A program made the position numbers and the translations under genes. Shown here in pieces: positions 5,462 through 8,572 of a stretch of 64,000 nucleotides of DNA. Each line of letters starts with the position of its first letter. Positions within the stretch are counted from its first letter, which is position 1. The stretch is from Escherichia coli (GTDB lineage: Bacteria > Pseudomonadota > Gammaproteobacteria > Enterobacterales > Enterobacteriaceae). The DNA is taken from NCBI RefSeq assembly GCF_003334405.1, contig NZ_QOWM01000004.1. One strand, 5' to 3'. The notes beneath the pieces are model-generated. The model saw only the letters and a program-made list of their open reading frames with translations. It searched no databases and had not been told where the DNA came from.

Positions 5462-6892
5462 ATGGCTGGGAATGTTCAGGAAAAACAGTTGCGATGGTAC
5501 AACATTGCGCTGATGTCTTTTATCACTGTCTGGGGTTTTGGCAACGTTGTTAATAACTATGCCAACCAGGGGCTGGTGGTTGTTTTTTCATGGGTGTTTA
5601 TCTTTGCACTCTATTTCACACCTTATGCGCTAATTGTTGGTCAGTTAGGCTCGACCTTCAAAGATGGGAAGGGCGGGGTCAGTACCTGGATTAAACACAC
5701 GATGGGACCCGGACTGGCTTATCTCGCCGCGTGGACCTACTGGGTGGTGCATATTCCCTATCTGGCACAAAAACCCCAGGCAATTCTGATTGCGCTCGGT
5801 TGGGCGATGAAAGGCGACGGTTCGCTAATCAAAGAATATTCAGTCGTAGCGTTACAGGGGTTAACGCTGGTGCTGTTTATCTTCTTTATGTGGGTTGCTT
5901 CACGCGGTATGAAATCGCTGAAAATCGTCGGTTCTGTGGCAGGGATTGCTATGTTTGTTATGTCGCTCCTGTATGTGGCGATGGCGGTAACCGCGCCTGC
6001 AATTACTGAAGTGCATATTGCGACCACAAACATTACCTGGGAAACGTTCATTCCTCATATCGACTTTACCTACATTACCACTATTTCAATGCTGGTTTTC
6101 GCGGTTGGCGGAGCAGAGAAGATTTCTCCTTACGTTAATCAAACGCGCAACCCAGGAAAAGAATTTCCAAAAGGGATGTTATGCCTGGCGGTGATGGTTG
6201 CGGTTTGTGCCATTCTGGGCTCGCTGGCGATGGGGATGATGTTTGATTCGCGTAATATCCCGGATGACTTAATGACCAACGGTCAGTATTACGCCTTTCA
6301 GAAGCTGGGCGAGTATTACAACATGGGTAATACTTTAATGGTGATTTACGCCATTGCGAATACCCTGGGACAAGTAGCGGCGCTGGTATTCTCGATTGAT
6401 GCCCCGCTTAAAGTGCTATTAGGTGATGCTGACAGCAAATATATTCCAGCCAGTTTATGTCGTACCAACGCTTCTGGTACGCCCGTTAATGGCTATTTTC
6501 TGACCCTGGTACTGGTGGCGATTCTGATTATGCTGCCGACTCTCGGCATTGGTGATATGAACAATCTCTATAAATGGCTGTTGAACCTTAATTCGGTAGT
6601 GATGCCGCTGCGTTATTTATGGGTATTTGTTGCATTTATTGCAGTCGTTCGCTTGGCGCAGAAATATAAACCAGAATATGTCTTTATTCGTAATAAGCCT
6701 CTGGCAATGACCGTCGGGATTTGGTGTTTTGCCTTTACCGCCTTTGCCTGTTTGACGGGGATCTTCCCGAAAATGGAAGCCTTCACTGCAGAGTGGACCT
6801 TCCAGTTGGCGCTGAATGTTGCAACGCCGTTTGTGCTGGTAGGATTAGGACTGATATTCCCGCTGCTGGCGCGTAAAGCGAATAGTAAATAA
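5462..6892 (+). CDS. ycaM: putative APC-family transporter YcaM
   Basis: ATG at 5462 gives 476 aa (MAGNVQEKQLRWYNIALMSF...), the length I recall for YcaM; the track ORF from 5270 runs through the ycaD terminator and is an over-extension. Confidence 0.85.
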   Translation: MAGNVQEKQLRWYNIALMSFITVWGFGNVVNNYANQGLVVVFSWVFIFALYFTPYALIVGQLGSTFKDGKGGVSTWIKHTMGPGLAYLAAWTYWVVHIPYLAQKPQAILIALGWAMKGDGSLIKEYSVVALQGLTLVLFIFFMWVASRGMKSLKIVGSVAGIAMFVMSLLYVAMAVTAPAITEVHIATTNITWETFIPHIDFTYITTISMLVFAVGGAEKISPYVNQTRNPGKEFPKGMLCLAVMVAVCAILGSLAMGMMFDSRNIPDDLMTNGQYYAFQKLGEYYNMGNTLMVIYAIANTLGQVAALVFSIDAPLKVLLGDADSKYIPASLCRTNASGTPVNGYFLTLVLVAILIMLPTLGIGDMNNLYKWLLNLNSVVMPLRYLWVFVAFIAVVRLAQKYKPEYVFIRNKPLAMTVGIWCFAFTAFACLTGIFPKMEAFTAEWTFQLALNVATPFVLVGLGLIFPLLARKANSK

Positions 6893-7801
6893 TTATTGTG
6901 GTCGGTGACGCTGACTCTGGCAGATCTGACCCGTTTTTACATAATCGAGAAATGCGCGCAAGCCGCAGGACATATACTGGCGGTTTGGATAATAGATCTG
7001 GAAGCCTGGACGCTCTGTGCTCCAGTCTTCCAGTACACATTCTAAACGACCAGTATCAAGGTACTCCTTGATCTGTTCATAGAGCAGATACCCGATACCA
7101 GCACCCATCAAAACGGCCTCCAGTTCAGCATCAACATCATCCAGAATGATATTTCCTGCGACAGCAATTTCCAGCTCCTTTGCAAATTGCCAGTGGAAAG
7201 GTTTGCCGCTGGGATAACGAAAAACAACACATTGATGATTAAGCAGATCATGAGGATGGCGGGGTTTGCCATATCTTGCAAAGTACTCTGGCGTTGCTGC
7301 TACACATAATTTCACTGGCGGGCCGATCGCCACGCTGATCATATCTTTTTCGACGATGCAACTAAGTCGAACGCCAGCGTCAAAGCCCTGTTGGACGATA
7401 TCGACAAGAGAGTCGTCAGTTGTGAGCTCGACTTTAATATCAGGATATTCACGTGTGAAACCAACCAGTAAAGACATTAAAAATATACGTGCAGCTACCC
7501 GGGCGGCATTGATTTTGAGCGTTCCTGTCGGTGTCAGACGAAAATCATTCATCTCATCTAACATGATCTGAATTTCGTCGAAAGCTGGGCGCAATCGTTC
7601 ATAGAGATTAGAACCCGCTTCCGTTAACGATACGCTTCGGGTTGTCCGATTGAATAAGCGAATTTTAAGACGTTGTTCCAGTGTTTTAATACTATGGCTA
7701 ATGGCGGACGAGGATAAGCCTAACTCATCGCCCGCTGCACGAAAGCTTTGATTACGGGCCACGGCAAAGAAAGTGGCAAAGTCAGACATATTCATCCGCA
7801 T
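6893..7801 (-). CDS. ycaN: LysR-family transcriptional regulator YcaN
   Basis: ORF 302 aa with N-terminal LysR helix-turn-helix (FRAAGDELGLSSSAISHSIKTLEQRL); divergent from ycaK. Confidence 0.9.
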   Translation of the reverse strand: MRMNMSDFATFFAVARNQSFRAAGDELGLSSSAISHSIKTLEQRLKIRLFNRTTRSVSLTEAGSNLYERLRPAFDEIQIMLDEMNDFRLTPTGTLKINAARVAARIFLMSLLVGFTREYPDIKVELTTDDSLVDIVQQGFDAGVRLSCIVEKDMISVAIGPPVKLCVAATPEYFARYGKPRHPHDLLNHQCVVFRYPSGKPFHWQFAKELEIAVAGNIILDDVDAELEAVLMGAGIGYLLYEQIKEYLDTGRLECVLEDWSTERPGFQIYYPNRQYMSCGLRAFLDYVKTGQICQSQRHRPQ

Positions 7802-7824
7802 TAGTGAAAATCCTTCATTAACTC

Positions 7825-7850
7825 ATCCTGAATCATCACGTTTACAGGAT
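7825..7850. promoter_or_regulatory. inverted repeat in the ycaN-ycaK divergent intergenic region (candidate LysR-type operator)
   Basis: ATCCTG-N14-CAGGAT perfect 6-bp arms between the divergently transcribed LysR regulator ycaN and ycaK. Confidence 0.3.
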
Positions 7851-7900
7851 TATGCCGCCTGCGTAAAGTGCGCTCCAGAACTTAACGTGGAGGTAAAATT

Positions 7901-8491
7901 ATGCAGTCTGAACGTATTTATTTGGTATGGGCCCATCCTCGTCATGATTCATTGACCGCACATATTGCTGATGCGATCCATCAGCGGGCAATGGAGCGGA
8001 AAATACAGGTGACGGAACTCGATTTATATCGGCGTAATTTCAACCCAGTGATGACGCCGGAAGATGAACCAGACTGGAAGAATATGGATAAACGTTATTC
8101 TCCAGAGGTTCATCAGCTTTATTCAGAGCTGCTTGAACATGACACGTTAGTGGTGGTTTTTCCTCTCTGGTGGTACAGCTTCCCGGCAATGCTAAAAGGA
8201 TATATTGACAGAGTATGGAATAATGGGCTGGCTTATGGAGATGGGCACAAATTACCATTCAATAAAGTTCGTTGGGTGGCGCTGGTTGGAGGAGACAAAG
8301 AATCATTTGTCCAGATGGGCTGGGAAAAAAATATAAGCGATTATTTAAAAAATATGTGCAGTTATCTTGGTATTGAAGATGCCGATGTCACTTTCTTGTG
8401 TAATACAGTGGTATTCGATGGGGAAGAACTTCACGCGAGCTATTATCAGTCGTTATTATCTCAGGTACGGGATATGGTAGATGCACTATAA
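7901..8491 (+). CDS. ycaK: flavodoxin-like NAD(P)H dehydrogenase (quinone) family protein YcaK
   Basis: ORF 196 aa, MQSERIYLVWAHPRHDSLTAHIADAIHQRA...; matches YcaK. Confidence 0.9.
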   Translation: MQSERIYLVWAHPRHDSLTAHIADAIHQRAMERKIQVTELDLYRRNFNPVMTPEDEPDWKNMDKRYSPEVHQLYSELLEHDTLVVVFPLWWYSFPAMLKGYIDRVWNNGLAYGDGHKLPFNKVRWVALVGGDKESFVQMGWEKNISDYLKNMCSYLGIEDADVTFLCNTVVFDGEELHASYYQSLLSQVRDMVDAL

Positions 8492-8530
8492 GATGTGTTA
8501 AAAACGCTGTAGCAGAATGAAGCGCGGAAT

Positions 8531-8563
8531 AAAAAAGCGGCAACTCAATAAAGTTGCCGCTTT
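8531..8563 (-). terminator. Rho-independent terminator of pflA (minus-strand polarity)
   Basis: 8-bp stem gcggcaac / gttgccgc (8537..8560); plus-strand A6 at 8531..8536 gives a U-tract on the minus-strand transcript. Confidence 0.6.
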
Positions 8564-8572
8564 ACGGGGAAA

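Follow-up and report, generated by a model that had tools for sequence, protein, structure and literature searches.

The divergent ycaN-ycaK gene pair of Escherichia coli: a candidate LysR module with a putative operator at the ycaN start codon

The divergent genes ycaN and ycaK of Escherichia coli form an uncharacterised example of a well-known kind of module, a LysR-type regulator beside its target, and strong comparative evidence supports the module. The first-pass annotation of this DNA had proposed such a small unit of regulator and divergent target, and that proposal is borne out by conservation of the pair, by conservation of the length and the sequence of the spacer between the genes, and by deletion of both genes as a unit. 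On balance, and with some confidence, we favor a reading in which ycaN and ycaK are a self-contained two-gene cassette that works as a classical LysR module, with YcaN acting through an inverted repeat at positions 7802..7820, directly before the ycaN start codon. This box is a much better operator candidate than the palindrome at 7825..7850. All positions are those of the window, the whole 64-kb stretch of DNA that was analyzed.

The divergent genes and their distribution

The window consists of E. coli K-12-like DNA with the gene order dmsABC-ycaC-ycaD-ycaM-ycaN-ycaK-pflA-pflB-focA. The gene pair occupies the following positions:

6893..7801, minus strand: ycaN, LysR-type transcriptional regulator of 302 amino acids (open reading frame and RefSeq annotation)
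7802..7900: spacer of 99 bp between the divergent genes ycaN and ycaK (from the ends of the open reading frames)
7901..8491, plus strand: ycaK, NAD(P)H oxidoreductase of the Flavodoxin_2 fold, 196 amino acids (open reading frame, Pfam, and NCBIfam)

The divergent arrangement of the two genes across 99 bp had been described from the sequence alone, and its coordinates and sequence were confirmed by the open reading frames and by RefSeq, where identical E. coli DNA is annotated as carrying a LysR family regulator (ycaN) and an NAD(P)H oxidoreductase (ycaK). The assignment of YcaN to the LysR family and of YcaK to the flavodoxin-like proteins also held. YcaN fits the LysR layout, with an N-terminal winged-helix DNA-binding domain and a C-terminal LysR substrate-binding domain in approximately 300 amino acids, and solved LysR regulators align with it over the full length (3mz1, E-value 3.9e-33; CrgA, 3hhg, 3.4e-29). 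Many NCBIfam LysR models match YcaN, and in the NCBIfam search no equivalog cut-off was reached. The best models were YafC (155.7, cut-off 470) and AaeR (121.8, cut-off 425); these two E. coli LysR paralogues provide the nearest models to YcaN, yet YcaN lies outside both named families.

YcaK matches Pfam Flavodoxin_2 (PF02525) with an E-value of 4.1e-40 and passes the NCBIfam equivalog NF007280 (NAD(P)H oxidoreductase) with 354 bits against a cut-off of 162. Its solved relatives are NQO1, NQO2, KefF, and bacterial quinone reductases, which align with residues 2-116 only, at E-values of 1e-14 to 1e-8. YcaK has the Pfam family and the N-terminal flavin-binding region in common with NQO1, NQO2, KefF, and the bacterial Flavodoxin_2 quinone reductases. 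We found no activity or substrate for YcaK in the literature, where the protein appears only within oxidoreductase screening libraries.

At its 3' end, ycaN meets the convergent gene ycaM: the stop of ycaM (plus strand) is at 6892, and the stop codon of ycaN (minus strand) begins at 6893. Because there are no intergenic bases between these convergent genes, their transcripts must overlap, and ycaM-ycaN is among the convergent "excludons" found by RNA-seq (PMC12288877). Overlap with the ycaM transcript means that ycaM expression could interfere with ycaN expression. At the far end of the pair, "ycaK.3UTR" was recovered by RIL-seq among the RNA partners of the candidate small RNA AceK-int (PMC8175672); this corresponds to window positions 8492..8572, the 3' end of ycaK and its UTR. 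GC content was compared as a possible mark of recent transfer: that of the cassette is 43-47% and that of pflB about 51%, and ycaM and ycaD are about as low as the cassette.

We scanned one genome per species for YcaN orthologues. YcaN was found at 59-74% identity in only 11 species, and the next tier of matches stood at 44%. The species are Limnobaculum, Rahnella, two Cedecea, two of the Serratia proteamaculans group, two "Enterobacter sp.," two Symbiopectobacterium, and Caballeronia, which is a beta-proteobacterium. A divergent gene for a YcaK homologue (50-57% identity) lies 99-104 bp upstream of ycaN in every one of them (11/11). When the E. coli locus is included, no genes other than ycaN and ycaK are shared by all 12 loci. 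The flanking genes differ, and ycaC, ycaD, and ycaM show no linkage to ycaN outside E. coli.

Within E. coli, 3328 of 5426 complete genomes carry the ycaN/ycaK spacer, in every case with an identity of at least 99%, and the cassette is missing from about 39% of the genomes. The segment corresponding to window positions 7006..8516 is deleted in strain 121, in which both genes have been lost as a unit. What is left there is a 111-nt remnant of the 3' end of ycaN between ycaM and pflA (locus L082, 3501..3710), annotated as a partial pseudogene. Because ycaN and ycaK are linked in all of the orthologous loci and have been deleted as a unit, they appear to be gained, kept, and lost together. A record of O157:H7 EDL933 matches the ycaN 3' remnant only, and the species-representative scan gave no match in the GTDB representative of E. 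coli.

Some matches to the cassette were filed as plasmids. All of these are E. coli records with near-identical sequence and all were typed as non-mobilizable; several are chromosome-sized, and these are therefore probably chromosomal sequence. We rejected plasmid carriage of the cassette on these grounds.

The YcaN protein of Caballeronia sp. dw_276 (L003) is 72% identical to that of E. coli, which makes it closer than most of the Enterobacterales proteins, and the spacer has the same architecture; two metagenome loci (L108 and L126) were grouped with this observation. The resemblance suggests that the two-gene unit has been transferred between classes. In Candidatus Symbiopectobacterium sp. 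"North America" (L012), the ycaK open reading frame is truncated and the ycaN match starts at residue 63. Both genes look degraded in this symbiont, and the spacer is still conserved.

Conservation of the spacer and a candidate operator

The 72 nt next to the ycaN ATG could be aligned across the 11 species with no indels, and 31 of the 72 columns are invariant. Among four-fold sites in the ycaN and ycaK genes (taken from codons with an invariant amino acid), 1 of 84 is invariant. The features of the spacer are as follows:

7802..7820: candidate YcaN recognition site, TAGTGAA-N5-TTCATTA (from its conservation, its uniqueness, and the boxes of paralogues)
7823..7833: conserved block 2, consensus CCATCTCAAAT, E. 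coli TCATCCTGAAT (alignment of orthologous spacers)
7825..7850: palindrome ATCCTG-N14-CAGGAT of the first-pass annotation (present, at chance level, and not conserved)
7841..7846, plus strand: predicted ycaK -35 element, TTTACA (consensus scan; invariant in 12 species)
7849..7854, minus strand: candidate ycaN -10 element, CATAAT, inside the ycaK promoter spacer (proposed from its conserved A-T core)
7864..7869, plus strand: predicted ycaK -10 element, TAAAGT (consensus scan; invariant in 12 species)
7889..7893, plus strand: ycaK Shine-Dalgarno sequence, GGAGG, 7 nt before the ATG (read from the sequence)

The two hexamers of the predicted ycaK promoter are separated by exactly 17 nt in all 12 species, which is within the 16-18 nt range of sigma-70 promoters. 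TTTACA-N17-TAAAGT was the only sigma-70-like site returned by a consensus scan of 7700..8000, and it matches 9 of 12 consensus positions. From these hexamers we infer that ycaK transcription starts near 7876. At the place of the ycaK Shine-Dalgarno sequence, the orthologues have a GAG-type purine-rich motif (GAGA or similar).

The conserved blocks 7823..7833 and 7838..7853 cover approximately -53 to -23 of the predicted ycaK promoter; this is the expected region both of a LysR activation site and of the ycaN -10 element. Block 7823..7833 may be part of an activation-binding site, part of the ycaN 5' leader, or both. The candidate ycaN -10 element reads nATAAT or nATAGT in the other species. 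When we searched for the ycaN promoter, no site passed the minus-strand consensus scan and CATAAT had no convincing -35 element, and no clear ycaN promoter was found in a published study either (PMC9308461).

The E. coli sequence differs from those of all orthologues in block 2, and E. coli and Limnobaculum are the two most divergent species there. All 10 of the other aligned orthologues also have three residues (E-G-P or similar, following HW[QE]F, after residue 206; approximately 7180..7186) that are missing from E. coli YcaN. Given the deviation in block 2 and this unique three-residue deletion, the E. coli copy of the cassette may work atypically or weakly.

The spacer also contains one copy of a 13-nt direct repeat, ATTATGCCGCCTG at 7849..7861, whose other copy, ATTATGCAGTCTG at 7898..7910 (85% identity), contains the ycaK start codon. 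In the first copy, an ATG at 7852 opens an open reading frame of four codons (ATG CCG CCT GCG TAA) upstream of the predicted ycaK start. The repeat is probably due to chance.

The box at 7802..7820 abuts the ycaN start codon. Its core, TGAAAATCCTTCA at 7805..7817, is a T-N11-A dyad of the form TGAA-N5-TTCA. In the 12 orthologous spacers, most of the arm positions are invariant and the center is variable; the ycaN Shine-Dalgarno sequence (TCCTT, 7812..7816, as read on the plus strand) lies inside this variable center. The box is centered on 7811, approximately -65 from the predicted ycaK start at 7876, a position that is itself predicted because the start is. Its half-site centers are 12 bp apart, or about one helical turn, and this spacing fits a LysR DNA-binding-domain pair because such a pair covers about one turn (PMC2724274).

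The box is unique in the 64-kb window, where it has a matrix score of 24.8 and the next best site, inside pflB, has a score of 12.8; the matrix scan found no copies near ycaC, ycaD, or focA or elsewhere in the window. A metagenome scan for box-N20-TTTACA-N17-TAAAGT returned 42 loci, and all 42 are flanked by ycaN and ycaK. Thirty-five of these are identical to E. coli, and seven come from other lineages.

We also analyzed 69 loci of more distant YcaN-like regulators, at 37-44% identity; they come from alpha-, beta-, and gamma-proteobacteria. In 15 of these 69 paralogues, compared with 1.25% of control windows, an ATGAR-N5-YTCAY box stands before the ATG at the offset seen in ycaN. The paralogue box (TGAR-N5-YTCA) ends 3 nt before the ATG, and a few more paralogues are one mismatch away from it. 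The divergent partners of these paralogues are not ycaK; they encode cupins, aldo-keto reductases, alpha/beta hydrolases, MFS transporters, CMD-family proteins, Ahr-like aldehyde reductases, and a WrbA-type quinone reductase. Because the same box is found at the same offset in paralogues that have other partners, we conclude that the box travels with the regulator gene and not with the target gene. Such a box, which follows the regulator whatever the target, is what a cognate operator would be expected to show.

A search for a second site identified an abutting TGAG-N5-TTAA in the consensus, which is degenerate in E. coli and Limnobaculum and is only 13 bp out of register. The spacer alignments contained no clear second conserved T-N11-A dyad, and none at the 15-bp spacing seen with CrgA.

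Published data and rival explanations

The first-pass annotation named no established effector or regulon for YcaN. ChIP-exo and deletion RNA-seq data have in fact been published, so that part of the statement needs amending; what stands is that a 2024 review, which lists PycaC and PycaD for YcaN, still counts it among the regulators of unknown role and unknown ligand (PMC11495319). Gao et al. (2021; PMC8464067) performed ChIP-exo with YcaN-8myc in glucose M9 and obtained six weak peaks (signal/noise 1.06-4.45), at cspE, ynjB, yobF, ung, rho, and yihQ; none is in the ycaN/ycaK spacer. Rodionova et al. (2022; PMC9068703) analyzed a ycaN deletion by RNA-seq in late-exponential cultures and found 702 changed genes. 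Expression of ycaC was down and that of ycaD and focA was up, ycaK was not named, and the role of YcaN was left "unknown"; a table in the same paper gives ycaC and ycaD as predicted sites. Our literature search found no paper that names ycaK as a YcaN target or defines an operator.

Published surveys thus point to ycaC, ycaD, and focA, whereas the comparative evidence points to ycaK as the conserved partner. If the surveys are taken at face value, ycaN and ycaK would be mere neighbors, YcaN would control ycaC, ycaD, focA, or distant genes, and the box would serve in ycaN autoregulation only. The expression changes in the deletion strain, the predicted sites at ycaC and ycaD together with their listing in the 2024 review, and the absence of a ChIP-exo peak at ycaK all speak for this explanation, which we nevertheless regard as unlikely. 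The box occurs nowhere else in the window, including upstream of ycaC, ycaD, and focA, and outside E. coli it is ycaK that is always linked to ycaN, and ycaC, ycaD, and ycaM never are. Because 702 genes changed in late-exponential cultures, most of the effects of the deletion are likely to be indirect.

The ChIP-exo peaks bear on the same question. The peaks in Dataset S4 of PMC8464067 are given in the older U00096.2 numbering, which we converted to NC_000913.3 (by about +778 ahead of the IS insertions and about +1977 beyond them). None of the six peak regions, at these shifted coordinates, contained the box; the best scores were 3.5-6.7 out of 24.8. The yihQ peak, at about 4066580, recurs in the lists of many unrelated regulators (PMC8464067), which suggests that it is a technical hot spot. 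The missing peak at ycaK is weak evidence because the six peaks look non-specific. Both ycaN and ycaK are weakly expressed in glucose M9, and the 8myc tag at the C terminus of YcaN may interfere with oligomer formation.

The palindrome that had been put forward as the candidate YcaN operator, ATCCTG-N14-CAGGAT at 7825..7850, is in our judgment very unlikely to have that role. The repeat is present exactly as described, with both 6-nt arms perfect, and it is in the right spacer. It covers approximately -51 to -26 of the predicted ycaK promoter, the usual place of LysR activation sites, and both of its arms fall inside partly conserved blocks: the left arm is within block 7823..7833, and the right arm overlaps the -35 hexamer. 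When we counted perfect 6-nt inverted repeats with a spacer of 0-30 nt, a comparable repeat occurred in 34% of dinucleotide-preserving shuffles of the 99-bp spacer and in 42% of real 99-nt windows across the same 64 kb, and so the repeat is at chance level. The expectation of 0.01 per window for the exact pattern is a post-hoc number, and further 6-nt inverted repeats are present in the ycaN/ycaK spacer.

The palindrome is also absent from the orthologues. In the corresponding columns of the 11 orthologous spacers, 0-3 of the 6 arm positions are complementary; the left arm in other species is ATCTCA or ATATCA, and the right arm is CAGAAT, CAGAAC, or CAGCGC. None of the seven non-E. coli metagenome copies contains it. 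The arm centers are 20 bp apart, about two helical turns, as against about one turn for the LysR DNA-binding-domain pair. The invariant -35 hexamer TTTACA largely accounts for the right arm, and the left arm exists because E. coli departs from the block 2 consensus. Judged from the alignments, the palindrome arose as a side effect of substitutions in the activation-site/-35 region that are specific to the E. coli lineage, and it is not the primary operator.

Two further explanations concern the box at 7802..7820 itself. It is highly improbable that the inverted repeat works at the RNA level, with a hairpin of the ycaN 5' leader sequestering the Shine-Dalgarno sequence. The two arms could pair in a 7-bp stem that would place the Shine-Dalgarno sequence in and beside the loop, and 85.7% of cells are paired. 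Compensatory changes are absent, however, all 12 sequences keep an A-C mismatch, the arms are invariant in sequence and not merely in pairing, and there is no Rfam match; both the form of the motif, exactly T-N11-A, and its position at -65 are those of a LysR box. We likewise find it hardly credible that the box serves another regulator, such as Nac or a CRP-like protein. A predicted Nac regulation of ycaK, ycaC, and ycaD is mentioned in PMC9068703, and EcoCyc is said to predict it for ycaK, but by eye the box is unlike TGTGA-N6-TCACA (CRP) or ATA-N9-TAT (Nac). It also accompanies YcaN-like genes in alpha- and beta-proteobacteria regardless of which gene is divergent, and this association with the LysR gene across classes makes a foreign regulator unlikely.

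A proposed mechanism and its relation to known systems

In the reading that we favor, the two-gene cassette with box 7802..7820 as the recognition site, YcaN would bind the box at approximately -65 of the ycaK promoter and would thereby sit on the ribosome-binding region and 5' leader of its own gene. From the box, a YcaN oligomer would reach a less symmetric activation site at the -35 region (approximately -50 to -25; blocks 7823..7833 and 7838..7853). Without effector, YcaN would hold down its own weak promoter; with effector, it would switch ycaK on or relieve ycaK repression. Because the -35 hexamer (TTTACA) is already good, the ycaK promoter may not need an activator, and YcaN could be a pure repressor.

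The effector would most likely be a small hydrophobic electrophile, a quinone or carbonyl compound, or a product of one, and YcaK would reduce such compounds. This class of effector is suggested by the reductase partner of YcaN and by the redox and carbonyl partners of its paralogues. No cysteine is invariant among YcaN orthologues, which makes conserved thiol sensing unlikely and ligand binding more likely; we rejected thiol-based sensing by YcaN for this reason.

A wider reading, which we offer only tentatively and as a possibility rather than an expectation, is that ATGAR-N5-YTCAY at the regulator start codon is the operator of a large undescribed subfamily of YcaN-like LysR regulators that govern electrophile-responsive detoxification cassettes. 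The subfamily would extend through alpha-, beta-, and gamma-proteobacteria, and each member would be paired with a different small redox- or carbonyl-detoxifying enzyme: a quinone reductase of the YcaK or WrbA type, an aldo-keto reductase, an Ahr-type aldehyde reductase, a cupin, or a CMD protein. If this were true, ycaN-ycaK would be the E. coli representative of a mobile cassette family, and the palindrome found only in E. coli, together with the three-residue deletion in YcaN, would be a sign that the switch has been rewired or has decayed in this lineage.

YcaN is among the E. coli K-12 LysR regulators for which a role and a ligand are still unlisted after ChIP-exo and RNA-seq. The present analysis offers base-precise predictions of its operator (7802..7820) and of the target promoter (7841..7869), and it narrows the search for an inducer to quinones, electrophiles, and reactive carbonyls. 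This is an incremental advance, in that the architecture is that of a textbook LysR module and about 39% of E. coli genomes do without the cassette.

The classical LysR layout has a recognition site of the T-N11-A type near -65, an activation site near -35, and a divergent autoregulated gene (PMC2724274). The ycaN/ycaK locus resembles it in its divergent genes, in the T-N11-A dyad at approximately -65 of the predicted target start, and in the conserved -35 region. It differs in that the YcaN box stands directly against the start codon of the regulator and includes its Shine-Dalgarno sequence, a placement that is conserved through the YcaN-like subfamily, and in that the ycaK promoter already has a near-consensus -35 element.

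A closer parallel is provided by CrgA of Neisseria meningitidis (PDB 3HHG), which represses its own gene and activates the divergent quinone reductase gene mdaB; the inducer of the CrgA-mdaB system, alpha-methylene-gamma-butyrolactone, acts indirectly (PMC2724274). CrgA is the second-best solved relative of YcaN and aligns over its full length, at an identity of only about 30%. A P-T-G motif in YcaN aligns with P-Q-G in CrgA and corresponds to the P-x-G hinge, a rigid element that leads from the linker helix to the regulatory domain (PMC11495319); P-x-G is invariant in the 11 orthologues. Regulators of the CrgA-like subclass form an octameric ring, and the comparison with YcaN was by sequence alone.

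For CrgA, two T-N11-A sites at a spacing of 15 bp have been footprinted, whereas the ycaN/ycaK spacer has one clear box, and the boxes differ in sequence and in half-site spacing (TGAA-N5-TTCA for YcaN and TGA-N5-TCA in the CrgA footprint). We take MdaB and YcaK to belong to separate families with a common fold. The 63-bp footprint of CrgA ends in its TGA-N5-TCA dyad beside an ATG, and in both systems a LysR regulator is divergent from a small NAD(P)H quinone-oxidoreductase gene, with LysR motifs in a short spacer that also carries the -35 element of the target and the -10 element of the regulator, each predicted in the case of ycaN/ycaK.
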